Below, one piece after another: positions 209 through 48,740 of a stretch of DNA of 48,740 bases. The DNA comes from a virus: the IMG/VR virus record IMGVR_UViG_3300034025_000003. The stretch is one strand, 5' to 3'. The stretch's first letter is position 1. The number at the start of each line of letters is the position of its first letter. The notes under the pieces are model-generated. The model was given only the letters and a program-made list of their open reading frames with translations, was not told where the DNA came from and ran no database searches. The translations under genes were made by a program, and so were the position numbers.

Positions 209-243
209 GCAGGGGGCTTCCGAAAAGGGAGTCCCCTGCTTTC
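209..243 (+). terminator. Intrinsic terminator after the capsid operon
   Basis: GCAGGGGGCT-loop-AGTCCCCTGC stem (one G-U pair) followed by TTTC, located just after the stop at 186. Confidence 0.6.
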
Positions 244-262
244 GTGATTAAGGAATAAGTAA

Positions 263-739: not shown

Positions 740-740
740 G

Positions 741-4664: not shown

Positions 4665-5122
4665 TGCCTGCTATAGCTATTGCCGCTGCTGGACTAGCGA
4701 TTTCTGCTGTCGGAACAGTAGCTACCATTAGTTCTCAGAATAAGATGCAGAAGGCGCAAGCCAATCAGTACAAGTTTGAGCGACAAATACAAACTAACCG
4801 TTCAACTCGCGAGCGAAGAGATGCCATCAGAGCTGCTCGATTGACGCAAGGTGCGCTTGTTCAGACAGGTGAGAATCAAGGTGCGTCTGGTACTTCTTCT
4901 GCGCTTGGCGGCATGGGATCGATTACTTCACAGCTGAACAGTAATCTTTCGTTTCTTGACACAAACACTAAGCTTGCGGATCGTGCAGGAACTGCTGCTG
5001 GCGATGCTCGAAAAGCTGCGGCAGCGGCTTCTAACTGGAACGGTGTTACGCAGCTTGGGATGCAAATCTTCAACAACAGCGGCACTATCGCCTCTAAAAT
5101 TTCAAAGCCAAAGGCTCCTTAA
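4664..5122 (+). CDS. Internal virion protein (gp14-like position)
   Basis: 152 aa with a hydrophobic N-terminus (MPAIAIAAAGLAISAVGTVATI) and an Ala/Gly/Ser-rich body. It precedes the giant internal proteins. Confidence 0.5.
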   Translation: MPAIAIAAAGLAISAVGTVATISSQNKMQKAQANQYKFERQIQTNRSTRERRDAIRAARLTQGALVQTGENQGASGTSSALGGMGSITSQLNSNLSFLDTNTKLADRAGTAAGDARKAAAAASNWNGVTQLGMQIFNNSGTIASKISKPKAP

Positions 5123-10284: not shown

Positions 10285-12754
10285 CGTAAACGACAACGCC
10301 CGCATTATCGAAGATGGTAGTGCGGGTGGAGGCGGAGGTGTGTCGACAGTGCTTTCCGGTCTTGCGAAAGGCTTGGGAGCGCTGACCGACCACTGGGATA
10401 ACCAAGTTAAGATGAAGCGCCAAGCAGCTGCTGACGCTCGCGAGAACTATCGGTTCAACCGAGAAGTTACGACTGACGCTGCAACTGACGATACTTTGGC
10501 CACAATGAATCGTGTCCAAAACAACACACTTATCGCCCCTCCTGTTGCGGCTCCTGCAGGGCCTGCTGCACCGCCCACTCAAGATGCTGCTCCTGTTCTT
10601 GACGGAGCGGACATTGCTTCTGTCGATAAAACAGTAAGTCGTCTTGAGACAATGCAAGCTGCCGTTGACCAAGGCAAGATGCCGAGCCTTAGTCGCAACG
10701 CTCAAATCGATTTAGCCCGTAATCAACTTTTTGATAAGTATTCGGGTCGTCCGGGTGCACTCGAAGAAGTCGCAAAGATTTTTAAAGACAAGGGCATCGA
10801 TCTTTTTCCGGATATTACAGCCGAGCAAAAGTTCCGTTCAGCTGAGCAAGAGTCTAGGACGAAGGAATACTTCGACACTATTGAAGTAGCTAAGAAGCTT
10901 AAGCCCTATGATCCGAACACGACAGATGAAGAGTACTACCGATCCGGTCGAGAATTTCAAGCTCGTGAAGCTGCTCGAATTGCTGCAAAAAACATAAGCG
11001 ACGAACGTCGAGCTGCTGCTGCTGAAGAACGTGCGGCTCGTGGTGAGGAAAGAGAGTCTATTGAGTTTGGTCGAAAAGAAGAAAGTCTTGATGCTTTCAG
11101 CGATGGTCAAACTCAAATGTTCAATACAATGGGACCTGTGCTACAAGACTTTCTCAAGCTAGCGCAAAGTGGTCCCGGTATTGGACAAAATGCTGAATAC
11201 GAAACAAAGATGGCAAATTTGACAGCACATCTTCACTCGACGTATAACGCCGTTCGATCAAGTATTGTCCGGAGTGCTAAAGACCCGGTGACTGCCTCGC
11301 AACTTGCGGCTCGTCTTGACGATGAATTCAAAACAGTTATTCTTGATCCAATCGTAACGCGTCGAGTAGAGTTTGGCAAAGCCGCCGAAGTTCTGGGAAC
11401 TGCGTTCAAGCTTCGTATGCAAGAAGCTGCTCCGCTCATTCGACAGCTAAATTCTATTGGCATTGATATGAAAGACATGCCAGACGTCGTTCAAAATCTA
11501 AGCCCCGAGCTTAAAGCTCAAGTAGCTAAAGAATTAGCGTTTAGCATGAACCCGAAGCTAAGTGCTGACGTCGGTAAGATTCATACGATGCACGCTCTTG
11601 AAATGCTGAAAGGAAACACAAGCCTACGAGATATGACGACTACTCAGGCTCGACAAGCACTAACTAGCGAAGCCAGTCGTCACGTAATGGGTCTTGCGCC
11701 TAAGATTGCTAGAGGCGAAGGCAACGGTGAAATGTGGCTTAACGCAGCTGCTCAGATGCCTACAGCAGCTGTTTCCGTTAATAGTGGTTCTGGTCCTGCT
11801 GTCCTCGGTCGAGCAATGGCGGTTCTCGCCAACAACAACTCTATTAACGCGTTGAACAAGTTGATGTCGAATCCTGATACGTCAGAAAAAGCAAAACTCG
11901 TTGCTCAATCTAGTCGAGCAGGTGTCGCGCACATTATGCAAGAAACTCGAACAGCGGCTGGCGCTACTGCTCGTAAGGAATATCAAGGTATCTATTACGA
12001 CCGAGGACAGGGCCAGTACGTTCTTCGTTTTTCAGACAGAGAGTGGAAGAAGGCTTATCCTAACGTATACACTCCTGGAAATATTCCTTCTTCGATGCTT
12101 CGGAATAAGCCGAGCGCTCCTTCAGCTGACTTGCAAAAGCTTGTCGGTAACATGAACGCTGGTTTGAAGTATCTTGTCGCTACCACTAAGTGGGACGCAG
12201 GTTCTGCGCCTACGGGTGGTTGGAAAGATGTTGCTGAGTTCTACGCAGTTGGTGATACAGCAGGCACTTCATACGACAGCAAATCTCCGCAGCGTAAGAA
12301 AGATGCTGACGTTATCAAGGCTATCGATGCTCTCGACAAAAGTCTTGGCGATCCGTCACGTTTTCTTGTCCCAGCTGATTCACCCAGCGACGGTACATCG
12401 AGAGGTGAGCGCAACAACAATCCCGGCAATCTTGAATACGGCGCGTACACAAAGGGTAAAGGTGCGACCGGCACTGACGGACGTTTTGCTGTCTTCCCGA
12501 CAATGGAAGCAGGCGTGAAAGCACAAGAAGAGCTTCTTGTTAACAACTACATTAACAAGGGTCGAAATACTGTAACTAAGGTCCTAGAAAAGTACGCCCC
12601 CCGTTCAGATAATCAAGGTTCATTTGAGAACTACGTATCGTACGTAGCTAAACGTTTGAATATTAATCCTAACGACACACTTACCCCAGCGATCGTCGGT
12701 CGACTAGCACAGGCTATGCGTGAATTTGAAACAGGAAACACTAGACGTGCGTAA
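10256..12754 (+). CDS. Internal virion protein with a C-terminal NNPGN-motif domain
   Basis: 832 aa with a coiled-coil, Ala-rich body. The C-terminus (ERNNNPGNLEYGAY...GRFAVFPTMEAGVKAQEELL...KYAP) is a motif block I recall from virion-associated phage proteins. Confidence 0.65.
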   Translation: MANLTATLSDVNDNARIIEDGSAGGGGGVSTVLSGLAKGLGALTDHWDNQVKMKRQAAADARENYRFNREVTTDAATDDTLATMNRVQNNTLIAPPVAAPAGPAAPPTQDAAPVLDGADIASVDKTVSRLETMQAAVDQGKMPSLSRNAQIDLARNQLFDKYSGRPGALEEVAKIFKDKGIDLFPDITAEQKFRSAEQESRTKEYFDTIEVAKKLKPYDPNTTDEEYYRSGREFQAREAARIAAKNISDERRAAAAEERAARGEERESIEFGRKEESLDAFSDGQTQMFNTMGPVLQDFLKLAQSGPGIGQNAEYETKMANLTAHLHSTYNAVRSSIVRSAKDPVTASQLAARLDDEFKTVILDPIVTRRVEFGKAAEVLGTAFKLRMQEAAPLIRQLNSIGIDMKDMPDVVQNLSPELKAQVAKELAFSMNPKLSADVGKIHTMHALEMLKGNTSLRDMTTTQARQALTSEASRHVMGLAPKIARGEGNGEMWLNAAAQMPTAAVSVNSGSGPAVLGRAMAVLANNNSINALNKLMSNPDTSEKAKLVAQSSRAGVAHIMQETRTAAGATARKEYQGIYYDRGQGQYVLRFSDREWKKAYPNVYTPGNIPSSMLRNKPSAPSADLQKLVGNMNAGLKYLVATTKWDAGSAPTGGWKDVAEFYAVGDTAGTSYDSKSPQRKKDADVIKAIDALDKSLGDPSRFLVPADSPSDGTSRGERNNNPGNLEYGAYTKGKGATGTDGRFAVFPTMEAGVKAQEELLVNNYINKGRNTVTKVLEKYAPRSDNQGSFENYVSYVAKRLNINPNDTLTPAIVGRLAQAMREFETGNTRRA

Positions 12755-12899
12755 TAGAATTCGCAACTTAATTAAGAACGGTGTCCACGATCAGAACGTA
12801 ATCTTTGATGTTCTGTATCCAGAATTTAAAGGACACTACAGCAGACTAAGAGACATAATCTCAATGGAGAAAAACGACGATGCCAATCGGTACGCATGA
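12747..12899 (+). CDS. Possible 50-aa ORF (GTG start)
   Basis: Open frame VRNRIRNLIKNGVHDQNVIFDVLYPEFKGHYSRLRDIIS... fills the gap between 12754 and 12880. It is below the ORF-track size cut-off. Confidence 0.25.
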   Translation: MRNRIRNLIKNGVHDQNVIFDVLYPEFKGHYSRLRDIISMEKNDDANRYA

Positions 12900-13425
12900 C
12901 TTAGCAGAAGCTCTCGACTATCTTCTTGACGAAGAAGGAGGGTGGTCAAATCATCCGGCAGATACTGGTGGAGCTACGTTCAACGGCGTAACTCAAGCCA
13001 CTTACAACGATTGGCGAAAGCGCGTTAAAAAGCTTCCGACACAAAGTGTTAAGATGGCGAAAGCCGAGGAAATTAAAGAACTTTACGACGTCATGTATTG
13101 GCGAGCGGCTAGGTGTGATAGATTGCCGTGGCCCATCAGCTACCTTGTGTTCGACGCTGCCGTTAACTCTGGGCCTAAACGAGGAATCCAATGGGCTCAG
13201 ACAGGTCTCGGACTTTCTTCAGACGGCCTAGTCGGTAATGCCACGATTGCCGCTGCCGAGAAGGTCGTGGTCGATGGGGATACCTCAAAAATTCTGGCAA
13301 TCGTCGATGCACGCGTCGTTTTCCTGGCGCGACTCGTTCAGTCAAAACCGTCTCAAGCTGCGTTTCTTCTCGGTTGGTGGCGTCGTACTCAGCGAGTTCT
13401 TGCTCGTGCCCTTCTTTCGGAGTAA
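12880..13425 (+). CDS. Endolysin, GH108 muramidase domain plus PG_binding_3 domain
   Basis: EEGGWSNHPADTGGATFNGVTQ matches the GH108 signature. YWRAARCDRLPWPISYLVFDAAVNSGP...SSDGLVGNATI matches PG_binding_3. Confidence 0.9.
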   Translation: MPIGTHDLAEALDYLLDEEGGWSNHPADTGGATFNGVTQATYNDWRKRVKKLPTQSVKMAKAEEIKELYDVMYWRAARCDRLPWPISYLVFDAAVNSGPKRGIQWAQTGLGLSSDGLVGNATIAAAEKVVVDGDTSKILAIVDARVVFLARLVQSKPSQAAFLLGWWRRTQRVLARALLSE

Positions 13426-13430
13426 AAACT

Positions 13431-13991
13431 GTGGGTATTCCTATCATTGGTGACTTGTTCAACAGCGTCAAAGACATCGTATCTGAAGTCGTTGTAGACA
13501 AAGATAAACGCGATCAAGTAAATCTAGAGCTGAAGAGGCTTGAGGATCAAGCGCAAGCTCGCCTAGATGCTCAGGTGACAGCGCAGATTGAAGTAAACAA
13601 AGTTGAAGCTGCATCCTCGTCAGTTTTTGTTGCTGGCTGGCGTCCGGCTGTAGGTTGGGTAGGAGCGGCGGGTCTTGCGTTCGCAACAATTCTTCAACCG
13701 CTGGGATCGTGGACGGCATCTGTGGTGTTTGGGTACACTGGTCCATTCCCTGTTCTCGATACGGAATTGCTTTGGGTAGCATTGAGTGGTATCCTTGGTA
13801 TTGGTGGTATGCGTTCTTTTGAGAAGTACAAGGGAGTAGCAACTAACGGCTACGAAGTACAGCCGACAGGTCCTGCCTCTTCGACGACAACTGTTAAGCC
13901 TTCTGGCGAAGTCACCGTACATAAAGAAGGGGCCACCGGCGTTCAGCCAGCAGCCCCTACGGGAGTTAAGAAGAAGTGGAAACCTTTCTAA
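13431..13991 (+). CDS. Holin, GTA-type 3-TM family
   Basis: KVEAASSSVFVAGWRPAVGWVGAAGLAF plus further TM segments resemble the 3-TM holin family of gene transfer agents. The GTG at 13431 follows the endolysin stop directly; the track start at 13374 would overlap the endolysin. Confidence 0.7.
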   Translation: MGIPIIGDLFNSVKDIVSEVVVDKDKRDQVNLELKRLEDQAQARLDAQVTAQIEVNKVEAASSSVFVAGWRPAVGWVGAAGLAFATILQPLGSWTASVVFGYTGPFPVLDTELLWVALSGILGIGGMRSFEKYKGVATNGYEVQPTGPASSTTTVKPSGEVTVHKEGATGVQPAAPTGVKKKWKPF

Positions 13992-13994: not shown

Positions 13995-14243
13995 TTATTC
14001 CATCCAGAATGCTTCCTGAACCTCGTGATTCGGGAACGTAAGACGAAGCTTGAAGTGGGGGGCGTTGACAGCAGCGTCCCCTTTGTCATGTGACTCTACG
14101 TCAAGAACGACGTTCGACATTCGTCGATGATTAAACTTTGCAACTCGTTGTGCAAACTCTTCAACCTTGATGGCTGAAGTTTCAAACAATCCGACTTGCA
14201 TTACTTCTTCGTAAGGCATACCGTGCCGCTTTTCGTCATCCAT
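13995..14243 (-). CDS. Hypothetical protein
   Basis: 82-aa ORF, the last gene of the minus-strand module. It overlaps the RNR stop by 8 nt. Confidence 0.5.
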   Translation of the reverse strand: MDDEKRHGMPYEEVMQVGLFETSAIKVEEFAQRVAKFNHRRMSNVVLDVESHDKGDAAVNAPHFKLRLTFPNHEVQEAFWME

Positions 14244-16137
14244 CGTTCACATTTCCAACTGTTATGATTTCGCAGACTCCACCTGTACAGGCAAGCTCTT
14301 GCGCTCCTGTCGTACTGTCTTCAGTTTCGTAAGCAACAAGCCCAGACCAATCAATAGCGTCAGGCATCGCCGCTTTAGCGACTTCGTATTCGTCCTCACC
14401 AATCTCGGTGTAGGGCGCTTGCTTATAAGTACCGTTGTCATAGGGTAGAAACGATACTCCCGATAGTTCGTCAAAGTGTTCATAAACCCAAGCTCCAACT
14501 TTCATCCATTCATCGTCACGAACATACACTGTGCACGACGGTTTGTGTTCACACCAATAATCTTGCAAAAGCTTCCACAACTCAAGCTGATCGATAGCTG
14601 TCATCTGATCTCGCCTTACACTGCCTTCAGGCGTCTCGATAGGGAACGAGAAGATAGAGGTAGAGGTTGGACTCATTGCATCTGCTTCTATTGGGATGCC
14701 AGAGTCTTTTAGAAAAGCTGTAAGAGGATCATTATTGTCAGCACGAACGGTGCGAATATAATGCCTACTAAAACTAGGGTGCAAACCGCTTGCACTGCCA
14801 ACGAGTTGTGAAACAGTGCCGCTCGGCTTAACGCACGTAGTGGCGACAGACTGAGGAATGCCAAGACGTTCAGCCCACTCCTTGTTTGTTTCAACAACGA
14901 TGTCTCGCAAAGCCGACAAGTTTTCGGCTGTGAGGAGCTTAACATTGTCGCAGACTCCTGTGAGACTGACACCTAGCAGTCGCTCTTCGTTGCAGTTATC
15001 GGCCCAAATTTTCCGTAGATACTTGAAATCGGTGAAAGTAGACTGGATCGTCCCAAGTATTGAAGCAACTCGTGCTTTTCTTTTGAGGCTGTCCAAATCA
15101 TCTGTTGCTCGGACAACAATTTCGGTAAGGTTACAAAACTCGTATGGGCGCAGGATAATCTCGCTGCATGGATTTGTGCCGAATTCAAAAGACGAGTCAC
15201 GTCTTCCATTGCGGTTAGCAATTCGTTGACATGCGTAACGACTGAAAAGCCCGCGTTCCCCGGACTTGCTGTCATAAAGCGCCTTCCATTCTTTCATGAA
15301 GAGGTCCATATCGGGCTTACGCCGTTCATAGACCGCAGAGTTGTTAGCTAAGCGACGATGGCCATAGCCATTCCACCATTCACCTGTCTTAGCGACACGC
15401 ATTCGATCATCGGTGACGTCAGACAAGCTAATCATAGCTGAACGACGAACACCGCCTACAACAACGATGTCGCCAATCTTACACATGATATCGTGACATT
15501 CAAGTGACGTTAGACGACGCCCAGCCGCTCGCTTGAAAATGTCAATTGTGAACTTAAAGAGGTCTTCAAGTGGTCCGGGACCTGACGCACGTCCTCCAAA
15601 TATTTTGAGTCGAGCACCGGCAGGTCGAACCGCTGAAGTATCCCATCCGGGGATTTCGCCACTATATAGCAAACTGATAAGTTGTCGGAAAGATCGAGCC
15701 CAACCTTCTTTAGAATCTGCAACAACAATTCGTGTTGCGCTGGACTCAAGTGTGTCACCGATGGTTGGAAGCTTATGGACATACTTTTCCTCAACGCTGA
15801 ATCCGACGCCTGTTCCACACATCAAAATATACATTGCTTCGTCGAACGAACGTGGGCTATCGACAGTCAAATAAGCGCAGTTAAAAGCAGCAACGTTGCA
15901 ACGTTCAAGAGCTGGTCCTGCTGTCATAAGAGCGCGCATAGACGGCATTACTTCAAGGTTAAAAATAGCCTCACGTACTTCACTCAAATCATTTGAGCCA
16001 GATTTATTTTGGTAATACTCGATTAGACGATCAACAGTTTCGTCCCAATTTTCTCGACGCTTGTCTTCCTCTCGCCACTTAGCATAGCGACTCTTATAGA
16101 TGAATTCTTCGTAGTAGTTCTTAAACGGACCTGTCAA
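14236..16137 (-). CDS. nrdJ: Ribonucleotide reductase, class II (B12-dependent), compact phage type
   Basis: 633 aa with a catalytic loop (GTNPCSEIIL, FCNLTE), SMRALMTAGP, GTGVGFS and a C-terminal Cys pair (CTGGVCE). It uses a TTG start preceded by AAGGAAG. Confidence 0.8.
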   Translation of the reverse strand: MTGPFKNYYEEFIYKSRYAKWREEDKRRENWDETVDRLIEYYQNKSGSNDLSEVREAIFNLEVMPSMRALMTAGPALERCNVAAFNCAYLTVDSPRSFDEAMYILMCGTGVGFSVEEKYVHKLPTIGDTLESSATRIVVADSKEGWARSFRQLISLLYSGEIPGWDTSAVRPAGARLKIFGGRASGPGPLEDLFKFTIDIFKRAAGRRLTSLECHDIMCKIGDIVVVGGVRRSAMISLSDVTDDRMRVAKTGEWWNGYGHRRLANNSAVYERRKPDMDLFMKEWKALYDSKSGERGLFSRYACQRIANRNGRRDSSFEFGTNPCSEIILRPYEFCNLTEIVVRATDDLDSLKRKARVASILGTIQSTFTDFKYLRKIWADNCNEERLLGVSLTGVCDNVKLLTAENLSALRDIVVETNKEWAERLGIPQSVATTCVKPSGTVSQLVGSASGLHPSFSRHYIRTVRADNNDPLTAFLKDSGIPIEADAMSPTSTSIFSFPIETPEGSVRRDQMTAIDQLELWKLLQDYWCEHKPSCTVYVRDDEWMKVGAWVYEHFDELSGVSFLPYDNGTYKQAPYTEIGEDEYEVAKAAMPDAIDWSGLVAYETEDSTTGAQELACTGGVCEIITVGNVNDG

Positions 16138-18383: not shown

Positions 18384-18555
18384 CGACTACGCGCTCCCCA
18401 GGATTCTGAGTAAGCTCTTCAGCAATCTTATCAACAGTCTCGTCGTTGTCGTACTTATCCATCAGTTCACGATATCGATCGTTACGAACGTGGTCAAGCA
18501 AAAGCTCGACAAGCTCGATCAATTCGTTACGAGTGACTTCATTCTTCTTCGCCAT
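18373..18555 (-). CDS. Hypothetical helical protein
   Basis: ATG at 18555 (MAKKNEVTRNELIELVELLL...) overlaps the end of endonuclease I. The track start at 18597 lies inside the upstream gene. Confidence 0.5.
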   Translation of the reverse strand: MAKKNEVTRNELIELVELLLDHVRNDRYRELMDKYDNDETVDKIAEELTQNPGERVVVGG

Positions 18556-18958
18556 TACTCTCACTCCACCAATCAATTGGAATTGAACCTTCCGCAAACG
18601 GAAAGCCTTTTGACGTTGCCCATTCTCCGTACGTCTTGCCGTAGCGAGACAGTTTAGTCCGGGCGTTTTGAAAGACGAAACGAATATCGAGATCAGGTCG
18701 AGCAGCTTTTACTGCCACCATCTTGCGTCGATCATTTACGTCTAGCTGCCCTTTAGCTTCCACAAGTATTCCGTTGGGCAGACGAAAATCAGGTTGGTAA
18801 CGATAGTGAATGCTATAGGGTATTATAGCATCTTTGGGCTCAAAGTCAAGCTTTTTCTTTAGACCTTTGGCAATACCAAAAAGGGAGGCTTCAAACTTTG
18901 AACGAAAGTGATTGTCTTTGGTCTTTACGCGAACGCTGAATTTAGGTGGTGCTTTCAC
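18539..18958 (-). CDS. Endonuclease I (T7 gp3-like Holliday junction resolvase)
   Basis: YQPDFRLPNGILVEAKGQLDVNDRRKMVAVKAARPDLDIRFVFQN...TYGEWATSKGFPFA matches the T7 endonuclease I core. The GTG start overlaps the upstream stop (GTGA). Confidence 0.85.
   Translation of the reverse strand: MKAPPKFSVRVKTKDNHFRSKFEASLFGIAKGLKKKLDFEPKDAIIPYSIHYRYQPDFRLPNGILVEAKGQLDVNDRRKMVAVKAARPDLDIRFVFQNARTKLSRYGKTYGEWATSKGFPFAEGSIPIDWWSESNGEEE
18822..18849 (-). promoter_or_regulatory. Candidate sigma70-type promoter inside the endonuclease I gene
   Basis: The minus strand reads GCTTGACT-N16-TATAAT with TG at the extended -10 position (GATGCTATAAT). Confidence 0.4.
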
Positions 18959-21146: not shown

Positions 21147-21175
21147 ATTATACCATGTTTAATTCACTTTGTCAA
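21147..21175 (-). promoter_or_regulatory. Consensus sigma70-type promoter
   Basis: The minus strand reads TCTTGACA-AAGTGAATTAAACATGG-TATAAT, a 17-nt spacer with both hexamers perfect. Confidence 0.7.
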
Positions 21176-24893: not shown

Positions 24894-24922
24894 ATTATAC
24901 ACAGTTTTGTAGAGGTTGTCAA
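24894..24922 (-). promoter_or_regulatory. Consensus sigma70-type promoter upstream of the primase-helicase gene
   Basis: The minus strand reads GCTTGACA-ACCTCTACAAAACTGTG-TATAAT, a 17-nt spacer with a TGn extended -10. Confidence 0.75.
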
Positions 24923-26204: not shown

Positions 26205-26443
26205 AGTCTCCACTCTTCGATTGTAGACGGGCCTTTGTTAATGATGTTCCCGTATTTATGCGACCAATGAGGATGAGGGGTACCATCTATTTTTACGATC
26301 AGAAAATCATTAAACTCGTTAATGTCAACAACAACGCAAGGAATTCCATCGTAACTATTAAGAAAAATTTCCTGTGATCTCTTTATTGCTCTCGAAGGAT
26401 TATTTTCGAACTCTATCTCAGCGTCCCAATCAATTGATTTCAT
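26201..26443 (-). CDS. WRL-tail small protein D (…GPSTIEEWRL)
   Basis: ATG at 26443 overlaps the end of the ATP-grasp gene. MKSIDWDAEIEF...; ends in IEEWRL-TGA. Confidence 0.65.
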   Translation of the reverse strand: MKSIDWDAEIEFENNPSRAIKRSQEIFLNSYDGIPCVVVDINEFNDFLIVKIDGTPHPHWSHKYGNIINKGPSTIEEWRL

Positions 26444-27182
26444 TTGAGATAGCCTGAAACGCTTGGGCGTAATCTTGGACTGTCTGACCCTCGAGACCGC
26501 ACGCTGTGTTAACTTCGAGAACATAGGCCATCTGTCGACGATCATTCCAAATAACGTCCACCCCGCCAAAATCAAGGCCAAGCGAATCAACAGCGGCAAT
26601 TGAATGCTCAAGGACACAATTAGGAGCGTCAACGCCATCGCGAGCGAATACAAAACCGTTAGCGTGATTACGTATCTGCCAGTTTGGGTCATCTACATCA
26701 AGCCTTCTCGCCTTGCGCTGCACAGCCACAACTCGACCTCGGACAACGTGTACTCGGTATTCGTCTTGCTTCGGTACGTAGCGGACGTAGAGCGGCGCGT
26801 TAACAAGCTCTTGTGCGCTATTCGCAACAACGATGCCAACACCGCTATGGCCGTTAAGAACAGTACGACAGAATACAGGATACGCTTCAGCAGGAATTTC
26901 TTCTTGCAACTGCCAAAAATCAGGGACATTTACGCCAGCCTCCTGCATTCTGTTGAATGCCCAAAGTTTGTTTGCGGCAGTAGCTACCGCATCAGAAGTA
27001 TTGAGGACTATTCCGCCTCGACCGTAAGGTACAGACGAACCCCAATTGATAATCAGATCATCGCGACGAGGAATGAACGTCGAACCTTGCAGTCGCAAAA
27101 CGCGTCCACGTGGGAGAGCGCCCGCAAGGGCTCGTGCTGATCGTGAACCTTGCTTATACGGATAGACGCGAAAACGAGGCAC
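26430..27182 (-). CDS. ATP-grasp ligase (RimK-like, phage type)
   Basis: NKLWAFNRMQEAGVNVPDF, GHSGVGIVV, EYRVHVVRGRVVAVQRK, WQIRNHANGFVF and LGLDFGGVDVIW...YVLEVNTACGL are typical ATP-grasp blocks. The GTG start overlaps the TAG of E. Confidence 0.85.
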   Translation of the reverse strand: MPRFRVYPYKQGSRSARALAGALPRGRVLRLQGSTFIPRRDDLIINWGSSVPYGRGGIVLNTSDAVATAANKLWAFNRMQEAGVNVPDFWQLQEEIPAEAYPVFCRTVLNGHSGVGIVVANSAQELVNAPLYVRYVPKQDEYRVHVVRGRVVAVQRKARRLDVDDPNWQIRNHANGFVFARDGVDAPNCVLEHSIAAVDSLGLDFGGVDVIWNDRRQMAYVLEVNTACGLEGQTVQDYAQAFQAISNEIN

Positions 27183-27406
27183 TACAATCTCCAATATTCA
27201 ATGACGTGACTGATTCTCTCAACAGAGCCAGTATTCCATTCTCCTCCGTTACCACTGACGGAGGTGTCTCCGACACGAGTCCAAGGCGATCGATCCCAAA
27301 TTACTTGGAAGTATCCCTTACGTCTAGCAATTGCTTCGACAGTGCCGACACAACCGTGAAAGTCTGTTCCATTAGTGCATCGAATACGATCACCTACTTG
27401 AATCAC
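27182..27406 (-). CDS. WRL-tail small protein E (…SHVIEYWRL), SH3-like N-terminus
   Basis: GTG at 27406 overlaps the TGA of F. (M)IQVGDRIRC...; ends in IEYWRL-TAG. Confidence 0.65.
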   Translation of the reverse strand: MIQVGDRIRCTNGTDFHGCVGTVEAIARRKGYFQVIWDRSPWTRVGDTSVSGNGGEWNTGSVERISHVIEYWRL

Positions 27407-29625: not shown

Positions 29626-30549
29626 TTACGCCTTCTTCTTAGTCTTCGACGCGGTGGCCTTAACTTCTTCCTTTTCAGCCTTAATTCGTTCGGCTTCTTC
29701 AGGGCTCACTTCTTCGATCTTCGGCAACGTAATCCCGAGGGTCGAAAGGTAAGTCTTTGCGTAAGACACATCACCCGAATTGATGATAGATTGAATGTCT
29801 ACGCCCTCCCTTTCAGCTTTAAGATACTGCGGAGTAGTCGACTGCATATCCTTGACAGCACGACTTACGAGGCCATGAATAAAACGCCGGAGAGGCGTGT
29901 TCAAAATCCAAGCGTTTGAAGGTGTGCGATATTCGACACCGTAGCTCTTCGGCCGATAAGCACCCGCCTTGCCGTACAGCTTACGACGTTCTGTGTCGCT
30001 ATCGATGCACGTCATGCCGAGACCGACGAATACGTCAAGATTACGAATGAACGCGCGGCAAACTTCGACGTGATCCGGGTGATCGACCGGAATGTCAGCG
30101 CCCCAGCCTACGTGAATGTGACCAGCTGCCGACCGCTGTCCGCTGTCTCCGTCAGGGCGAGGATTGGGCTCCGAAGGATCGATGCTGTACGCGCAGTAAT
30201 CAGGGTCACAGCCGAGTTCCTTAGCCTCTTCAGGAAGGCTCTCGTAGTAGTCCTTGTCGAAGAACACAGTCGGAGAAGGTTCGATCTGAAGATTAGACGG
30301 AATAATCGAACGCAGCTCCGACAGCACGCCAACAATGTTGTTGTTGAAGGCCGAGAAATCATCGATCGGAACAGGGTTCGTGTTGAATTCAGCGGCCAAT
30401 CCATCCGGCTGAACAGCGCCTGCGCTAACCTTATGCGGCGCTTTCTTCGAGCCCGGAACAAGGTCGTGTGCACTGACGGGCTTGCCAGTCGCGCGATCCT
30501 TGACGAAGATTTCTGGATCGCAACCAATCGTGAATTTGAAAGTAGACAT
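29626..30549 (-). CDS. COOH-NH2 ligase (phiEco32-like type 2 family)
   Basis: FTIGCDPEIFV...VSAHDLVPGSKKAPHKV..GAVQPDGLAAEFNTNPV and AAGHIHVGW resemble the phage COOH-NH2 ligase family of the GCS/GS superfamily. Confidence 0.7.
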   Translation of the reverse strand: MSTFKFTIGCDPEIFVKDRATGKPVSAHDLVPGSKKAPHKVSAGAVQPDGLAAEFNTNPVPIDDFSAFNNNIVGVLSELRSIIPSNLQIEPSPTVFFDKDYYESLPEEAKELGCDPDYCAYSIDPSEPNPRPDGDSGQRSAAGHIHVGWGADIPVDHPDHVEVCRAFIRNLDVFVGLGMTCIDSDTERRKLYGKAGAYRPKSYGVEYRTPSNAWILNTPLRRFIHGLVSRAVKDMQSTTPQYLKAEREGVDIQSIINSGDVSYAKTYLSTLGITLPKIEEVSPEEAERIKAEKEEVKATASKTKKKA

Positions 30550-31814
30550 TACGCTGCAAGCTCCTTATTAGCGTTGTTAGTAAAACAAGTTGAACAGAGA
30601 AGGGCTGAAGTCGACAACCATTTGCCGATACTTCCAGTCAATGCGTCGTTGTAGTCGACGTCTTTTTGGCAGAACGAACAACATTGGTCCGTCTTTGCGT
30701 ACTCTCCGGCGTCGATTACGTCGCCTCGAAAGTCGAGTAGCTCATTATCAAACTTTTGCGGCAATGCGCGCGAGACTTCCGAGCCATTTCTTTTGCTGTC
30801 GTGCGCCAAGCTGAGCAAAGGCTTCTTCGCTCGGATAACCGCTTGGGAGACTATCTTGTCCTTTTCGGACTCGCCAGCTAAGGGCGATTGTGCTGTAGAC
30901 TTCGACTCGACCGCTGTGGGCGTGATAACCTGCGGGTTTTGCGGGAGTGCCTTCACGGCGTTCCCTACGTCTCCCTTTTCCCCAGGAATGTTCGGATCGT
31001 CGTCCAGATTGTCCTCCCACCCCCACGGTGACCGGTACGGGTTGTGAAAATTTACGGCAGACTTAATTGCCACCCCTCCTTCGAGCTTTTCGTTTCGAAC
31101 GAACGTGAAAACGTTTTTCTTGTCGAGAGGATCGATAGTTACAGACCACCAACTATCCGTCTCAAGGGGCGCAACGAAAAACTCTGGTTCGTCTTTGCCT
31201 GCTTGATTCGCGAGCTTTTGACCGTGCTTTCCGCAAGCCACGGTAATCATCCACGTTTCAGACGCCCAAAAGACTTTACGATAGTCTTCGCTGAAGGCGT
31301 AGAACAACGTGCGTTGATCGTTGCGAAGGAAGTTCAGCGTGTCGTCAGCAGTATCGTGCCAGACAAGAGCGTAAGCTCCTTCGACCTGTTCGATAGTGTC
31401 ACGAACGCCGATTTCAGCGAAAGATGAGTACAGTCGTTGACTGTCGATTGCGCCAGTTTCGCCTCCCGGCAACTTGTAGTAGTTACGAAGTGTTCCGTTA
31501 TGAACACCTGAAAACGTTCCGTAGTTAAACGGATGCGCTGTTTGCTTTGTGATGTTGCCGACAGTTGCTTTACGAGTATGGCCAATCATGGCCTTCGTCG
31601 TACCAGCAGTGATTATGTCGTAAGACTTTCGATCGTACAAGTCGAAAGGATTTCCAATATCCTTTACGATGCGAACATCGCCTGTCGGCAATCGTGGAAT
31701 AAACGCGACACCTGTAGAATCTCGACCACGAACAGTCGAGAAGACAAGCATCATTTCAAGAATATCTTTATCGCGGTAGCTGAGGTCCCCAGCGCAACCC
31801 ACTAAACCACACAA
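30549..31814 (-). CDS. Class II (Ntn) glutamine amidotransferase with a C-terminal Cys-rich region
   Basis: A TTG start is followed by Cys (M)CGLVGC. RGRDSTGVA, GHTRKATVG and HPF..GVHNGTL are also present. The C-terminus carries CCSFC...CSTC. Confidence 0.8.
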   Translation of the reverse strand: MCGLVGCAGDLSYRDKDILEMMLVFSTVRGRDSTGVAFIPRLPTGDVRIVKDIGNPFDLYDRKSYDIITAGTTKAMIGHTRKATVGNITKQTAHPFNYGTFSGVHNGTLRNYYKLPGGETGAIDSQRLYSSFAEIGVRDTIEQVEGAYALVWHDTADDTLNFLRNDQRTLFYAFSEDYRKVFWASETWMITVACGKHGQKLANQAGKDEPEFFVAPLETDSWWSVTIDPLDKKNVFTFVRNEKLEGGVAIKSAVNFHNPYRSPWGWEDNLDDDPNIPGEKGDVGNAVKALPQNPQVITPTAVESKSTAQSPLAGESEKDKIVSQAVIRAKKPLLSLAHDSKRNGSEVSRALPQKFDNELLDFRGDVIDAGEYAKTDQCCSFCQKDVDYNDALTGSIGKWLSTSALLCSTCFTNNANKELAA

Positions 31815-31967
31815 TTGAGGTCTCCTAGAAAATTAAACATTGACAACTTAAGCCAAACGAAGGATACACGAAGAATAATGTTGCCGTTATTTGTTATGAA
31901 TGCAACACGATTAAATCATACGGAACAGCTCAACGTCATCGTCAAATTGCTGATTGGATGGATTCTT

Positions 31968-32051
31968 TTACACGGACACCGCAAGAACAAGAAGAGCGAT
32001 AGAACTGACGATGCCGATACCTGCGCCGACGCTACAACTAAAATTCTTCAT
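31968..32051 (-). CDS. Possible 27-aa hydrophobic peptide
   Basis: ATG overlaps the TAA of the class I GATase (TAATG). MKNFSCSVGAGIGIVSSIALLVLAVSV. Confidence 0.25.
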   Translation of the reverse strand: MKNFSCSVGAGIGIVSSIALLVLAVSV

Positions 32052-32845
32052 TACTTGATTTCCTTCTTGATGAATTCGACTTCACTGATAGGCTTCAGAT
32101 TGTCAGCAAAGAATCCGTTCTCGACAAAGTTCTTGACTTCGTTGAGACACCACATCGTGTATTCTGGATATCCGCCGACTTCCGGATGACCCTGCACAGC
32201 AATCGCACGAATGTTCGGATAAACTGCTGCTTCGAGATCGCGATGAGCGTTGCTTTCGAGCGTCTTATTCTGATTGCTGTAGCGAGCGCCAAGGCCAGCT
32301 TGAGCGGCAAACGCCAGCGGAAACGTTGCTTCGTTCGGAATACACATTTGGTGATGCATCGAAGAGACCCACCAATCAGGTTTTGAACCGTCAGACAACT
32401 CAATCTTGTGTCGCCAACCGTGGTTGTGAACGTCTTGCCAGAGCTTACCACCGTTCATGACGTGCAGGAACTGCATGCCACGACAGATGCCAAACATAGG
32501 CTTGTCGAGCTCAATAGCTTTCGCAAACACGTCAGCTTCGCGAGCGTCGCGAGCTACGTTGAAGTACGTACCCTTAAGCGGCTTTTCACCGTACAACGAC
32601 GGATCGACGTCTTCGCCACCAGAGAAACAAAGAAGATCAGCTTCTTCGATCGACTTAGCTTTCGTGCAGTTAGCCTTAGCAAACATCTCGACGATGCCTG
32701 AAAGAAAGCAGCTACCGACGATAAACACTTTGTATCCGAGCTTCGGATAGACGTCGTCGATGCTATGTTCGCGGTTAGTCTTCGAGTTTTCGTCAGGAAG
32801 AAGACCTAGCTCTCGAAGACGTTCGGCTGTGACAGGAGTGTTCAT
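32051..32845 (-). CDS. Class I glutamine amidotransferase-like / peptidase C26 (gamma-glutamyl hydrolase type)
   Basis: PMFGICRGMQFLHV supplies the nucleophile elbow and AVQGHPE supplies the His-Glu of the triad. Confidence 0.8.
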   Translation of the reverse strand: MNTPVTAERLRELGLLPDENSKTNREHSIDDVYPKLGYKVFIVGSCFLSGIVEMFAKANCTKAKSIEEADLLCFSGGEDVDPSLYGEKPLKGTYFNVARDAREADVFAKAIELDKPMFGICRGMQFLHVMNGGKLWQDVHNHGWRHKIELSDGSKPDWWVSSMHHQMCIPNEATFPLAFAAQAGLGARYSNQNKTLESNAHRDLEAAVYPNIRAIAVQGHPEVGGYPEYTMWCLNEVKNFVENGFFADNLKPISEVEFIKKEIK

Positions 32846-36515: not shown

Positions 36516-36557
36516 GGAGGTTCTCCGAGTGTCGGTTGTCCAGCCCATTGCTGGTGT

Positions 36558-36613
36558 GAGGCATGATTGAAATCAGGCAAGGCGTCCCTATTTGTAAACC
36601 TGCATCATGCCTC
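36558..36613 (-). promoter_or_regulatory. Strong stem-loop in the 5' leader of ORF 36515
   Basis: GAGGCATGAT (36558-67) is perfectly complementary to ATCATGCCTC (36604-13), extended by CAGG/CCTG. Confidence 0.4.
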
Positions 36614-36635
36614 GCATCAACGATGGGAAAAGGGT

Positions 36636-36688
36636 AAAGAAAAAGGCACGGCGCATGATAGATTAAACAACCTACCGTACACCGTGCC
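36636..36688 (-). terminator. Candidate terminator or attenuator at the end of the ORF-free transcript
   Basis: The minus strand reads GGCACGG-30 nt-CCGTGCC followed by TTTTTCTTT. The loop is long for an intrinsic terminator. Confidence 0.35.
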
Positions 36689-37522
36689 CTTATCTTGAAC
36701 AAGGTTAATCTTTAAACACGTACCTAACACGTGTGTTCTTTCTAGTCCGTGCTACTCTTTGGAGGCGTTGCACTCTCAACACAGACCCGGGGGCTCCGTC
36801 CATTACGAACGGTTCAGTGCTCAAGAATTACTTGAGGACTTAGCGTTTTCCCCGCGCCCCGTCGCTACTCTTTGGCGAGTAGTCGCAGGCATACTCGGAA
36901 TGTTTTCCAGTTAACGCTATCCTGCTACGGATAACGCTTCACATCGTCTAGCCTCACGCCCCGCACCTATTTCAAGGTACGTGAAAAGATCGTGCAACGG
37001 ACAGCTTCTAACTGTACGTCCTTTGACTAGCATCCGCCTTGTTGTCAGTCGTCCGACGCTCCGCATCCGGTTGCTAATCCAGATCGTTCAGGCTTTGCCG
37101 ACGCATCATTTACCCTAGAGCAAGCGGCCGGACCTAAGAGCGCCACCGTTGGACGGTGACTGTTAGTGTGATAACTAGCGACTGATCGATTGGTTCCGCA
37201 AACTTTCTTTCGTCCGCTGGAACCGGTCAGTAGCTGGAAGCCACGAATACATAACGGACGTTGAGACGAGGGGTTCCGTCCACCGAACAAATTTATTTCG
37301 GGATGTGTGTTAGTCAAGTAAGACACCTATCCCGCGAGCTAAAGGGAACCCACGCGCACGTGATTGCAAGGTCTGTGCCAAGATTGCAGACGTAGACGTC
37401 GGTGATAATGTCTTGCAATATCAATGAGATGATGTATTGTCACTTGCTACTGCGGATAACTCGCATAAACAGAAGGCAAGAAGGAATGTCAGAAAACATC
37501 GAGGAAACATCACGAAGACCCC

Positions 37523-37544
37523 GGGGGAGGGGGTTGGGGGTGGG
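37523..37544 (+). other. G-quadruplex-type tract G5-A-G5-TT-G5-T-G3
   Basis: gggggagggggttgggggtggg read directly from the sequence. Complementary C-runs lie at 37561-67, 37604-09 and 37757-71. Confidence 0.6.
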
Positions 37545-37837
37545 CTCTTTCTTGCAATAACCCCCCCTAAAAATATCTCGAAGAAATTCAAGCCAATCTT
37601 CAGCCCCCCTTACGAAGACACGAAAAAAGGCCTCCCACGAAAACCGCGAGAAGCCGGGCATTTGCGAAGCAAATCTTTTCGGGAACGAAAAGGCCCCGAA
37701 CGTAGTGAGTTTAAAAAGATTAACTACTTAAGAAATTAAACTGTAAGAAGGGACATCCCCCCAAACCCCCCTTTTAAACCGCCGAAGCAGGAGGAAGGCC
37801 AACGTCCAATCAACGGGTCTCCCCATCTCATACGTAC

Positions 37838-37866
37838 ATTATACACGAAATAGAAACATTTGTCAA
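37838..37866 (-). promoter_or_regulatory. Consensus sigma70-type promoter (leftward, early)
   Basis: The minus strand reads GCTTGACA-AATGTTTCTATTTCGTG-TATAAT, a 17-nt spacer with a TGn extended -10. Confidence 0.75.
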
Positions 37867-37901
37867 GCTCTTTCTTAAAGAGCGGCTTCTAAAAATAAAG
37901 C

Positions 37902-37930
37902 TTGACAACTCTTCCTAAATCTGATATAAT
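37902..37930 (+). promoter_or_regulatory. Consensus sigma70-type promoter (rightward)
   Basis: GCTTGACA-ACTCTTCCTAAATCTGA-TATAAT. The ATG of the first gene begins 7 nt after the -10 hexamer. Confidence 0.8.
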
Positions 37931-37936
37931 ACACAT

Positions 37937-44506: not shown

Positions 44507-46323
44507 TGGCTGGCGACATTACGCTTGAAAATTTCATTGACGCAGATTTGACTGCATCTGAAATCGCGAATAAATATCAGACGTGGGAAAATCTTCGGTC
44601 TACGTGGCTAGACGAAAAGAAAGAGATTCAAGAGTACATCTTTGCGACCGATACTTCTACGACTACAAACGCTGTTCTACCGTGGAAGAATCGAACTCAC
44701 ATCCCTAAGCTTTGTCAGATTCGAGACAATCTTCACGCAAACTACATGGCTACGCTGTTCCCGAACGATGAAAGCTTTGTTTGGGAAGGAGATGACACTA
44801 ACTCTGAGACTCGTGAAAAGCGTAAAGTCATTCAGAGTTACATGTCGAACAAGTTGAAGCAAAGCGGATTTATGACAGAAGTCAGCCGTCTTGTTCTCGA
44901 CTACATCGATTACGGCAACGTCTTTGCAATGCCAGTGTTCGAAGCTTCTTACAAGAAAGACCCGGTGACAGGGGAGAACGTTCCGACTTACATCGGACCT
45001 CGGATTAAACGCGTTGCTCCTGAAGATATCGTATTTGATCCGACAGCTAACACGTTTGATGAAGCTCCTAAGATCGTGCGAGAACTGCGTACTTTAGGTG
45101 GTCTAAAGAAAGATATTCTAACTAAGCCTGAACTCGCATACGAAGAAGAGATTTTTAAGAAGGTCACTGACTTAAGGGCGCGATTTGCGGCTCACAGTGC
45201 TGGCGACTTTGCAAAAAACTCGACTTTCCAAATGGCCGGTTTCACAGGATTCTGGGAATACTTCAACAGTGACTACGTAGAGATTCTAAACTTCTACGGA
45301 GATTTCTACGATCGAGAGACAAACGAACTTTACGAGAATTACCTCATAAGCGTCGTCGATCGATCGTTCATTATTCGTAAGCAGCCTCTTTCGAACTGGA
45401 CAGGTTCGCCTGCGATACGTCACAGTGGATGGAGAATTCGACAGAACAATCTTTACGCAATGGGACCGCTAGATAATCTCATTGGTCTACAGTATCGTAT
45501 CGATCACCTTGAGAACGCCAAGGCTGATGCCTTTGATTTGATCGTTCATCCAGTAATGAAGATCACTGGCTCGGTGGAAGATTTCGAATACGGACCGGGT
45601 GAACGTATCTACGTCTCACAAGATGACGGTGACGTATCTTTTATGGCACCTGACACAACCTTCCTTAACGCGGACACGCAGATTGCGATGTACGAAAACA
45701 AGATGGAGGAAATGGCAGGCGCACCTAAGCAGGCTGTGGGATTCCGAACTCCGGGTGAGAAGACAGCGTACGAAGTTCAAGTTCTAGAGAATGGCGCTAA
45801 CCGAGTCTTTATCAACAAGATCAGTTATTTCGAAGAGATTTTTCTCGAGCCTCTTTTGAACGACATGCTTGAACTAGCTCGCCGTAATCTCGATGAAAGT
45901 GACGTTATTCGTGTTCTTGATGATGAAACACAAGCCGTTACGTTTCAGACAATCACTCGGCAAGATATCGTAGCTCGCGGAAAGATTCGTCCTATCGGAG
46001 CTCGTCATTTTGCCCAGAACGCTACAATCGTTCAGAATTTGACACAGTTCAGCAACAGCAACTTGGCTAAGGACCCGCTAATCATGAACCACGTAAGTGG
46101 TGAGCGATTGGCTATGGCCCTTGAAACTTTGTTGGGTCTCGACAAGTACAAGCTTATTCAGAAGAACATTCGTTTGTACGAACAGGCTGATATGCAGAAC
46201 ACAGTTTCGTCTTTGCAGCAAGCAGTCATGGAACAACAGACGGCAGGAATGCCACCTGAACAAGCGGCTCAAGTTGCAGGAGCAGCTGCGCAACAACAAG
46301 TTGAAGGACAACAGCCAGCATGA
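44506..46323 (+). CDS. Portal protein
   Basis: 605 aa, located between TerL and scaffold/capsid. GTG start 9 nt after GAGGA. Gln/Ala-rich C-terminal tail. Confidence 0.75.
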   Translation: MAGDITLENFIDADLTASEIANKYQTWENLRSTWLDEKKEIQEYIFATDTSTTTNAVLPWKNRTHIPKLCQIRDNLHANYMATLFPNDESFVWEGDDTNSETREKRKVIQSYMSNKLKQSGFMTEVSRLVLDYIDYGNVFAMPVFEASYKKDPVTGENVPTYIGPRIKRVAPEDIVFDPTANTFDEAPKIVRELRTLGGLKKDILTKPELAYEEEIFKKVTDLRARFAAHSAGDFAKNSTFQMAGFTGFWEYFNSDYVEILNFYGDFYDRETNELYENYLISVVDRSFIIRKQPLSNWTGSPAIRHSGWRIRQNNLYAMGPLDNLIGLQYRIDHLENAKADAFDLIVHPVMKITGSVEDFEYGPGERIYVSQDDGDVSFMAPDTTFLNADTQIAMYENKMEEMAGAPKQAVGFRTPGEKTAYEVQVLENGANRVFINKISYFEEIFLEPLLNDMLELARRNLDESDVIRVLDDETQAVTFQTITRQDIVARGKIRPIGARHFAQNATIVQNLTQFSNSNLAKDPLIMNHVSGERLAMALETLLGLDKYKLIQKNIRLYEQADMQNTVSSLQQAVMEQQTAGMPPEQAAQVAGAAAQQQVEGQQPA

Positions 46324-46574
46324 AAGCTGAGTGGCTAGGTAATCTTAAGGGAGAGGATAGAGAGAATTTTAAGAATTCTATCCTCTCATCGAAAATAGTT
46401 CTTGACAAACTAAATGAAATAGTGTATAATATGTATAAGAAGGAAGAATCTGTGTCTACTGCAGATTACGATTCACCTTCGTGGTCTCATAAGCAAGCCC
46501 ATACAAACGGCAGGCGTGAGGCTTTAAAGCAAATTCTTGATCTTATAACATTAGAAAGCCCAAACCTTGGCTGA
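46320..46574 (+). CDS. Hypothetical protein (contains an embedded promoter)
   Basis: 84-aa ORF with an ATGA overlap onto the portal stop. Confidence 0.5.
   Translation: MKAEWLGNLKGEDRENFKNSILSSKIVLDKLNEIVYNMYKKEESVSTADYDSPSWSHKQAHTNGRREALKQILDLITLESPNLG
46402..46430 (+). promoter_or_regulatory. Consensus sigma70-type promoter embedded in a CDS, upstream of scaffold and capsid
   Basis: TCTTGACA-AACTAAATGAAATAGTG-TATAAT, a 17-nt spacer with a TGn extended -10. Confidence 0.65.
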
Positions 46575-48316: not shown

Positions 48317-48740
48317 ATGGCAGCAGTAGATTGGGTGAATAGCGACGGTCTAATCGTACGCTTCGGCCCTAATCAGGGCATTCGTGGTGCACGCGCAGGC
48401 GTCACTATGGGTGCAGGCAAGCATCGTGAACTAGTACTCACGGTTGATCTTGCAGGTCCGGCAGGTACTCGTTACACGGCAGACCTTAACAACGACGGCG
48501 TAAACGAAGCTTTTGCTCCGGCTAACGGTTCGGGCCTCGATACGCCCATTCCTGCGGGCGCTGTAATTACCAGCCAGCGAGTTCGTACTCTCGTTGCTCC
48601 GGCAGGTGGTACGAGCTTTACGATTGGTACGTATCTGGCTAACGGTACGGCAGACAACGCTACGGGTATCCGTACGGCAGCGGGCACTGACGGTGCTCAG
48701 GTAGGCACTCAGCTTGCTGCCGCTCGTTTCGCGGGTGTTA
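48317..48740 (+). CDS. N-terminal part of the wrap-around capsid-associated (decoration-like) protein; continues at 128..186
   Basis: ATG is preceded by AAAGGAAAC. The frame is still open at the window end and is in phase with the TAA at 184-186 once the 127-bp duplication is collapsed. Confidence 0.6.
   Translation, partial: MAAVDWVNSDGLIVRFGPNQGIRGARAGVTMGAGKHRELVLTVDLAGPAGTRYTADLNNDGVNEAFAPANGSGLDTPIPAGAVITSQRVRTLVAPAGGTSFTIGTYLANGTADNATGIRTAAGTDGAQVGTQLAAARFAGV
48614..48740. repeat. 127-bp exact copy of 1..127
   Basis: Direct comparison of the two window ends. Confidence 0.95.

Follow-up and report, generated by a model that had tools for sequence, protein, structure and literature searches.

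The IMG/VR virus record IMGVR_UViG_3300034025_000003, whose whole stretch of 48,740 nucleotides is referred to here as the window, contains between its two gene arms a non-coding interval (36549-37936) with a perfect leftward promoter at one side and a hairpin followed by a U-run at the other. The question raised by this locus is whether it specifies one large structured RNA, as proposed in a first-pass annotation that drew a single transcript of about 1.2 kb between these two elements, or is composed of parts with different roles. The results described below indicate that the interval is probably a mosaic of separate cis elements at the joined ends of a linear, terminally redundant podovirus genome. 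It would be a mosaic, and not one RNA gene, because the assembler closed the linear genome into a circle and thereby joined both arms. The modules of this mosaic are conserved among related phages, in which they occur in the same order and orientation.

Probable joined genome ends and the outward promoter

The arms that flank the interval diverge from it, with early and replication genes on the minus strand (36548 to 14236) and structural genes on the plus strand (37937 to the end of the window, continuing from 1 to 13991). The first and last 127 nt of the window (1-127 and 48614-48740) are the same sequence, which reflects the k-mer overlap of a circular assembly and not a biological repeat. 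The large terminase was 59-62% identical to its counterparts in Zobellviridae (Lentibacter, Roseobacter and Celeribacter phages; Siovirus and Cobavirinae), and T7-like replication genes, i.e., those for a family A DNA polymerase, a primase-helicase and endonuclease I (18539-18958), were noted in the window. Judged from its sequence, the window represents a Zobellviridae-like podovirus whose assembly was circularised. Two features of a cobavirus-like terminal-repeat region were thus present, namely two convergent arms with an ORF-free gap between them in the circular representation (ORF, open reading frame) and related packaging and replication genes.

Relatives were obtained from metagenomes by way of the 178-aa protein that adjoins the interval, for which 79 homologues were found; the surrounding loci were fetched and are given below by L numbers where they have to be told apart. 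A non-coding gap of 0.85-2 kb was present in every relative whose contig extends far enough. In agreement with the first-pass annotation, no ORF longer than 100 aa was found on either strand of 36549-37936, and the short ORFs were not conserved in relatives. No DNA match to the interval was found among 50,697 phage records, and searches for the locus with single proteins gave no match in IMG/VR and none in GTDB genomes.

Within the interval, a junction box (AATTTCT-N3-AGATATT, 37572-37588, minus strand) lies just outside the predicted terminal repeat and is conserved in all relatives as well as in ICBM1, ICBM2, P12053L and SIO1 (consensus AATTTCT-N3-AGAWAAT). It is followed by the predicted start of the direct terminal repeat, i.e., the left physical end (37523-37561, minus strand), which reads G/TTATTGCAAG-N7-CCCACCCCCAACCCCCTCCCCC. 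The consensus of this motif, which is unique in the window, consists of TTATWTGCAA, 7-8 nt and four C-runs, the plus strand thus carrying four G-runs of G-quadruplex type. The termini of the Lentibacter phages ICBM1 and ICBM2 have been mapped with PacBio reads (PMC6775973), and the window from 37588 to 37523 aligned column for column with their mapped repeat start. Thus, the junction of ICBM1 is GAATTTCT-GTT-AGTAAAT-N10/GTTGTACATACAGCAGG-CCACCCCCTAACCCCCC and that of the window and its relatives is GAATTTCT-CCG-AGATAAT-N11/TATATGCAA-N7-CCCCACCCCCTACCCCC, and in an alignment of ICBM1, ICBM2, P12053L, SIO1 and 10 members of the clade, the distance from GAATTTCT to CCACCCCC was 45 versus 46 nt. 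A conserved G+C-rich motif homologous to mapped termini therefore marks the 5' end of the predicted repeat. In SIO1, the ORF-free region between the arms matches the repeat, the 5' end of which is likewise conserved and G+C-rich (PMC6775973). The GenBank records of ICBM1 and ICBM2 list a direct terminal repeat for each phage (172 and 159 bp, respectively), and in both phages the first gene encountered inward from the right physical end is the homologue of the 178-aa gene.

Because the junction aligns with the mapped termini of ICBM1 and ICBM2 at like spacing, the left genome end is predicted at about 37561 on the minus strand, with the repeat running toward lower coordinates; by analogy, its far end may lie some 150-200 bp further, near 37400. 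Packaged DNA would then begin at about 37561, where concatemers would be cut. The motif at the repeat start is common to marine roseophages and the soil and plant clade of the window and therefore points to a conserved recognition site for end processing. A scan of IMG/VR for TATGCAA-N6-9-CCACCCCC gave more than 120 matches, no new one of which had the junction architecture.

Contigs of relatives (15-51 kb) often break at the G/C-run box or no more than about 90 nt from it (L100, L102, L107, L081, L086 and L156), which may reflect a drop in coverage at the G-runs or a property of the repeat boundary. These contig ends were considered as proof of the physical end and rejected, because they span about 90 nt and coincide with G-runs, at which sequencing is difficult.

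On the other side of the junction box, two perfect sigma-70 promoters diverge. The rightward promoter P_R (TTGACA-N17-TATAAT with TG, 37902-37930, plus strand), which was perfect in 18 of 20 relatives scanned, serves the structural arm. Its -10 element ends 7 nt before the ATG (37937) of the 178-aa gene, a spacing also seen in 8 of the 20 relatives, and the mRNA is therefore probably leaderless. The leftward promoter P_L (37838-37866, minus strand), on which the proposed 1.2-kb transcript had been based, did match the consensus at 12 of 12 positions (TTGACA-N17-TATAAT, 37866 to 37838) and was perfect in 20 of 20 relatives. The transcript drawn from it, by contrast, was not supported. Thus, an intrinsic terminator that had been overlooked (37623-37655, minus strand), with a stem of 12 bp that includes 7 GC pairs and is followed by T6, lies about 205 nt after P_L, and a hairpin with a U-run was found 150-260 nt after P_L in 16 of 16 relatives tested, although the stem sequences were unrelated. 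RNA from P_L is very unlikely to be 1.2 kb long, as this strong, conserved terminator would stop it after about 205 nt, and the predicted end of packaged DNA also falls inside the interval.

At the right end of the linear genome, P_L would accordingly be expected from its orientation to fire outward and to yield a short RNA (37623-37831, minus strand; 5' end placed 7 nt after the -10 element) that would stop about 60 nt before the terminal repeat. In packaged DNA, P_L is predicted to point off the right end, the early arm being reachable from it in concatemers only, with the terminator in the way.

The short RNA itself had a modular structure. In the window, its minimum free energy (MFE) gave z = -2.35 relative to shuffled sequences, and values for the whole RNA across relatives ranged from -0.5 to -2.6, with one at -7.7. 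All hairpins listed in the first-pass annotation were located within a few bases of the positions given there, three of them in this RNA (CTGC-TTCG-GCGG, 37790-37779; CTTTTCG-TTCC-CGAAAAG, 37692-37675; ATTTGC-TTC-GCAAAT, 37673-37659). A hairpin at the 5' end was visible in most relatives with sequences that differed among them. Further on, a G-run module (GGGGGG-TTT-GGGGGG-A, 37756-37771, minus strand) was noted, in which two runs of five to six G flank TTT in the window, L101 and L107; in most relatives a hairpin stands in its place, with a tandem G.A/A.G internal loop and covarying stems, so that eight distinct sequences of one shape were found. The module is followed by a 17-nt box (CTCACTACGTTCGGGGC, 37693-37709, minus strand; consensus CTCGCTNCGCTCGGGGC) that was nearly invariant against a background of 42% identity. 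RNAalifold applied to an automatic alignment of the short RNA recovered only an invariant 4-bp hairpin because this alignment was poor, and the modules were hence compared one by one.

A search for phage sequence complementary to the 17-nt box returned only the box itself. A scan of IMG/VR for CTCGCTNCGCTCGGGGC gave 46 matches, one of which (the L001 contig) had the architecture described here, the others being at about chance level. In the unrelated viral contigs L128, L130, L135, L140 and L147 from IMG/VR, the box CTCGCTNCGCTCGGGGC was found together with locally repeated CTCGCTTCGCTCG-like sequence close by in non-coding DNA, although the overall count of matches was near that expected by chance.

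Three more perfect TTGACA-N17-TATAAT promoters were found in the window. Two on the minus strand (24894-24922 and 21147-21175) lie in intergenic gaps of the replication arm and one on the plus strand (46402-46430) lies within a small ORF of the structural arm (46320-46574), upstream of the next genes. Exact consensus promoters thus appear to be a standard signal of this phage. No perfect sigma-70 promoter was found from the predicted terminus through the first 11 kb of early genes.

Promoter-like motifs and a folded leader RNA on the early side

For the left arm, it is proposed that early transcription starts not at P_L but at motifs of the sigma-54 and extracytoplasmic function (ECF) types that lie between the predicted terminus and the early genes. 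The consensus of sigma-54 (RpoN) promoters is TGGCAC-N5-TTGCW. A motif of this type (TGGCACAGACCTTGCA, 37365-37380, minus strand) that faces the early genes was the single match to TGGCAY-N5-TTGCW on both strands of the 48.7-kb window, in which 0.12 matches were expected. Among 13 relatives, 16 exact matches to the consensus occurred in the 800 nt after the predicted terminus as opposed to 1 in 228 kb of background, and all of the former pointed toward the early genes. The -24 and -12 blocks of these sites (GG at -24 and GC at -12, in TGGCAC-N5-TTGCW) and the distance between them were kept while the five bases of the spacer varied; selection thus acted on the elements and not on the spacer, and orientation was fixed. 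In five phages, one site occupied a fixed position relative to the predicted terminus (+68 to +71), and its copy in the window has decayed (37491-37476). Between the two sites, and thus upstream of the second, is a conserved block (37403-37466, minus strand) in which a TATTGAGAATCATT-like repeat of about 14 bp recurs, its copies lying in both orientations in relatives and being likely protein-binding sites.

Directly downstream of the sigma-54-type site, an element CACGTGCGCGTG (37350-37361, minus strand; consensus CGTGCGCGTG) was conserved in most relatives. The arms ATTGCAAG (37419-37412) and CTTGCAAT (37370-37363), which had been reported to pair, were also present, and CTTGCAAT is the -12 element of the sigma-54-type site.

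Promoters of the ECF class combine a -35 AAC with a -10 CGT, as in the EcfG-type GGAAC-N16-17-CGTT. A motif of this form (GGAAC-N16-CGTT, 37253-37277, minus strand) was found downstream of the sigma-54-type site in the early direction. In alignment A6, GGAACC and CGT were invariant and the spacer varied, relatives having GGAACC-N15-16-CGTCTTA, so that a -35 GGAAC and a -10 CGT 16-17 nt apart were conserved as two blocks. There were 13 matches in left-end regions, always in the early direction, versus 1 in background, and in four relatives the motif stood 80-190 nt upstream of a small ORF. Basic ORFs of 88-98 aa that begin MTR(H/N)QRRK were noted in L087, L154, L105 and L101 (ATGs at 789, 707, 632 and 2378, respectively), where the window has its leader RNA. 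Elsewhere in the window, GGAAC-N16-CGTC occurs at 26226-26250 (minus strand), in the intergenic gap 26214-26429 and facing the downstream gene. A second GGAACC in the interval (37197) was considered as an ECF promoter and abandoned, because its flanks form covarying RNA helices of which it is part.

The RNA that would start at the ECF-type site is a leader of about 600 nt (36636-37246, minus strand), although a start near 37353, from the sigma-54-type site, is possible. The claim that the region is highly structured was upheld, as the whole interval folds more stably than shuffled sequences (z = -4.4). Most of this stability came from the 530 nt at its 3' side (37165-36636, z = -4.9; coding controls -2.8 and +0.7; opposite strand -3.2). 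RNAalifold applied to the window, L001 and L083 gave 113 pairs, 41 of which had compensatory changes.

In the 5' domain of the leader, represented by a model of 167 positions and five helices (R1, 37025-37192, minus strand), 25 pairs in five helices were aligned among four sequences. Of the cells in these pairs, 92% were paired compared with 30-45% when partners were slid, 12 pairs had changed on both sides compared with 0-3 for slid partners, and none of 500 shuffles reached the observed values. For the R1 domain as a whole, compensatory changes were seen at 15 pairs as opposed to 0-4 with slid partners, for which 30-46% of cells were paired. The R1 covariance model matched the syntenic site of L092 (E = 5e-7), a more distant phage that had no part in building it; in addition to L092, the domain was found in L001, L083, L104 and the truncated L084, but L157 and the marine isolates were not detected in this search. 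When L092 and L084 were added, helices 2 and 4 were 100% paired and 5 of 6 pairs in each covaried, though this extended alignment favours the structure because it was fitted to the model. The hairpin CACCGT-CCA-ACGGTG (37158-37144), listed in the first-pass annotation, kept its shape in L001, L083, L084 and L104 with sequences that differed, and further covarying hairpins were present in the leaders of the window, L001 and L083.

Thus, the leader is a conserved, folded RNA without an Rfam family, and its substitutions, which lack codon periodicity, and its frame-breaking indels mark it as non-coding. In agreement with the failure of the first-pass annotation to match the region to a known RNA, neither the window nor 12 relatives gave a match to an Rfam family, and searches of the window for tRNA and tmRNA were likewise negative. 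Among the covariance models, which included those for GOLLD, ROOL, OLE, group I and II introns, tmRNA, RNase P, riboswitches and 6S RNA, none reached its gathering score, and a permissive search gave E-values in the region of 0.5 or worse at best, to unrelated miRNA models.

The leader ends in a long hairpin with a T-run (inverted repeat I1, 36636-36688, minus strand), which was present as first described and may act as an intrinsic terminator or attenuator. Its position, 120 nt upstream of the first early gene, was conserved in L001, L104 and L157 while the sequence of the stem had changed. Both this element and the one at 37655-37623 therefore combine a GC-rich hairpin and a U-run at a conserved position, as expected of intrinsic terminators. 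Between the leader and the first early gene is a further hairpin in the 5' untranslated region (inverted repeat I4, arms 36619-36604 and 36567-36552), which with a GGAG (36526-36523) and the ATG at 36515 makes up the segment 36513-36619 (minus strand). The start of this gene had been correctly placed in the first-pass annotation, since its homologues begin with MSLKI; the product, of 194 aa, belongs to phrog_1448, a family with no assigned function. For polymerase to reach the early genes from the proposed start sites, read-through of the hairpin and U-run would be needed.

The annotators' idea of a non-coding RNA, which they had made dependent on covariation among aligned homologues, is thus supported in part, for the 3' half of the interval, where the leader domain covaried in five phages; this RNA would start from promoters other than P_L. 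Internal direct repeats that had been noted there (families D5 and D6) were both present, but as two-copy repeats they were near chance and their second copies were not conserved in L001; one copy of GCTACTCTTTGG was found to be the loop and 3' arm of a covarying hairpin.

Weighing the explanations

Several points weigh against the view of the interval as joined genome ends with early promoters of alternative sigma type. The phages from which the genome end was placed by homology have a neighbouring protein with an identity of only about 36%. Around the G/C-run box, contigs of relatives end at positions spread across about 90 nt and identify no single base, a pattern that fits sequencing trouble at the G-runs equally well as a true end. 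Neither an enhancer-binding protein (Sigma54_activat domain) nor a sigma factor was found among 20 phage proteins scanned, a set that left out the 1720-aa ORF at 5122-10284 and most other ORFs of the right arm. The readings as sigma-54 and ECF sites are accordingly based on the shape of the motifs and their conservation, and p-values for the enrichment of these motifs overstate independence because the relatives are homologous. A limited literature search found no report of sigma-54 early promoters in phages. Covariation of the leader was derived from five to six sequences, with one alignment fitted to the model. Finally, if the DNA circularised early or formed concatemers, P_L could feed the early arm by read-through of the terminator.

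A more far-reaching account can be put forward as a conjecture, which would more probably fail in one of its parts than hold in all of them. The early programme would be transcribed from host sigma-54 and ECF promoters at the end of the injected DNA, and infection would then be gated by the stress or nutrient state of the host. The leader with its R1 domain would represent a new class of cis-regulatory RNA (riboswitch-like or acting by antitermination) that controls read-through, and the outward RNA, by way of its G-runs, would bind the C-run box of the terminal repeat by base pairing while genome ends are replicated or packaged.

An unlikely alternative, though more probable than those that follow it, is that the interval is mainly an origin of replication activated by transcription, in which the DNA at the genome end would be opened or primed jointly by transcription from P_L, the repeats (about 14 bp each) and a repeat start able to form a G-quadruplex, the sigma-like motifs being sites for replication or packaging proteins. 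Such an origin would account for motifs of about 14 bp that are repeated in both orientations, for a block of four G-runs that was conserved from the marine isolates to the clade of the window, and for the G-runs of the short RNA being complementary to the repeat-start C-runs (in the window, 71% over 28 nt; inverted repeats I2 and I7). In T7, moreover, promoters located close to the genome ends serve as secondary origins. It would not explain why the -24 and -12 bases of the sigma-54-type sites, and the distance between them, are kept despite a variable spacer sequence, with every site pointing toward the early genes, nor why the ECF-type motif recurs at the distance given above from a small ORF in relatives, and no initiator protein was identified. 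A replication or packaging origin was among the functions first suggested for the region, and this suggestion was borne out to the extent that the terminal repeat, an element of packaging and replication, is predicted to begin within the interval.

Rather less probable is a role of the short P_L RNA as a put-like, cis-acting antitermination RNA, by which host RNA polymerase would pass both terminators in circular or concatemeric DNA so that P_L drives the early genes. A strong constitutive promoter followed by a conserved structured RNA (the invariant 17-nt box and the covarying tandem-GA hairpin), two terminators that precede the genes and the lack of an N- or Q-like protein gene upstream of these terminators are all in keeping with this scheme. 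It conflicts with the predicted orientation of P_L, off the end of packaged linear DNA, and with the marine isolates, since the outward promoter and terminator of ICBM2 are not accompanied by any of the RNA motifs and ICBM1 is without an outward promoter. The likeness to put RNA is one of position (promoter-proximal and before terminators), and no put match appeared in Rfam scans.

The single structured RNA of about 1.2 kb, from P_L (about 37831) to the hairpin and U-run at 36636, is very improbable. It could claim an ORF-free interval, a perfect promoter, the overall MFE z-score of -4.4 and the existence of both boundary elements. Opposed to it are the strong terminator at +205, conserved in the window and all 16 relatives tested, the predicted genome end inside the interval, the modular pattern of conservation with promoter-like motifs in the middle and the lack of any match to a large RNA in Rfam.

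It is scarcely credible that the interval represents coding DNA in which decay or sequencing errors have disrupted an ORF: short ORFs of 73-100 aa do occur on both strands, but none was conserved in eight relatives, mismatches between the window and L001 showed no codon periodicity (35, 30 and 44 in the three codon positions; 122 each) and gaps of 1-2 nt broke the frame, and compensatory base-pair changes point to selection at the level of RNA.

Neighbouring genes and comparison with known systems

Other genes of the window include a cluster at 29626-32845 and 26430-27194 of glutamine amidotransferase-like genes, a gene for a phiEco32-type COOH-NH2 ligase and an ATP-grasp gene, as well as a ribonucleotide reductase gene at 14236-16137.

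As the probable joined ends of a linear genome, the interval has its closest counterpart in the cobaviruses (ICBM1 and ICBM2, Roseophage SIO1 and Celeribacter phage P12053L; Bischoff et al., 2019, PMC6775973), which like the window are two-armed with an ORF-free region between the arms when drawn as a circle. They share with it a homologous junction, in which the GAATTTCT box is followed by a TTRTAYATRCA-like terminus and then by C-runs, and the same first gene inside the right end, with a perfect sigma-70 promoter. In ICBM2, as in the window, a perfect outward promoter, a terminator and then the repeat were noted. The termini of ICBM1 and ICBM2 have been mapped whereas those of the window were placed by homology. 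Sigma-54- and ECF-type motifs, the motifs of the P_L RNA and the R1 domain, all of which the window has, were not found in the sequences of the cobavirus isolates. Habitats differ as well, the clade of the window coming from soil and plant metagenomes and the cobaviruses having marine Rhodobacteraceae as hosts.

The T7 genome has a non-coding left end of about 0.9 kb with the host promoters A1-A3, and at its right end the promoter phiOR and a pause site at the concatemer junction. The predicted genome of the window resembles it in being linear with short direct terminal repeats, in its left end, a long non-coding stretch for early control that host RNA polymerase would read, and in a right-end promoter directed toward the concatemer junction, transcription from which would stop near the repeat. 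T7 differs in its one direction of transcription, its own RNA polymerase and its sigma-70 early promoters; the window has convergent arms and early motifs of alternative sigma type, and a scan of 20 of its proteins revealed neither a phage RNA polymerase nor a sigma factor.

The PR'-6S RNA-tR' unit of lambda and put of HK022 likewise combine a strong promoter, a structured RNA of about 200 nt and a terminator before a block of genes. In contrast with these, the window has no Q or N gene and its promoter is predicted to face a DNA end. Compared with bacterial sigma-54 promoters, the site in the window matches the -24 and -12 elements and their spacing exactly, but here such sites are found where a lytic phage genome ends, with about 69 nt separating them from the predicted terminus in relatives, and no activator was identified. 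The motif GGAAC-N16-CGTT fits ECF promoters, although no sigma domain was detected in the 20 phage proteins.

More generally, where a circular phage contig has a large ORF-free gap beside a perfect promoter, this gap can represent the two ends of a linear genome collapsed together, in which case reading it as one transcript misleads. If the alternative-sigma-type motifs are true promoters, this would be an unusual lytic phage that ties its first transcription to alternative host sigma factors. The leader domain is a candidate new RNA family, supported by covariation, that can be modelled, searched for and tested. Thus, the terminal region is of a known kind, as in cobaviruses, while the leader RNA and the alternative-sigma-type motifs look new.

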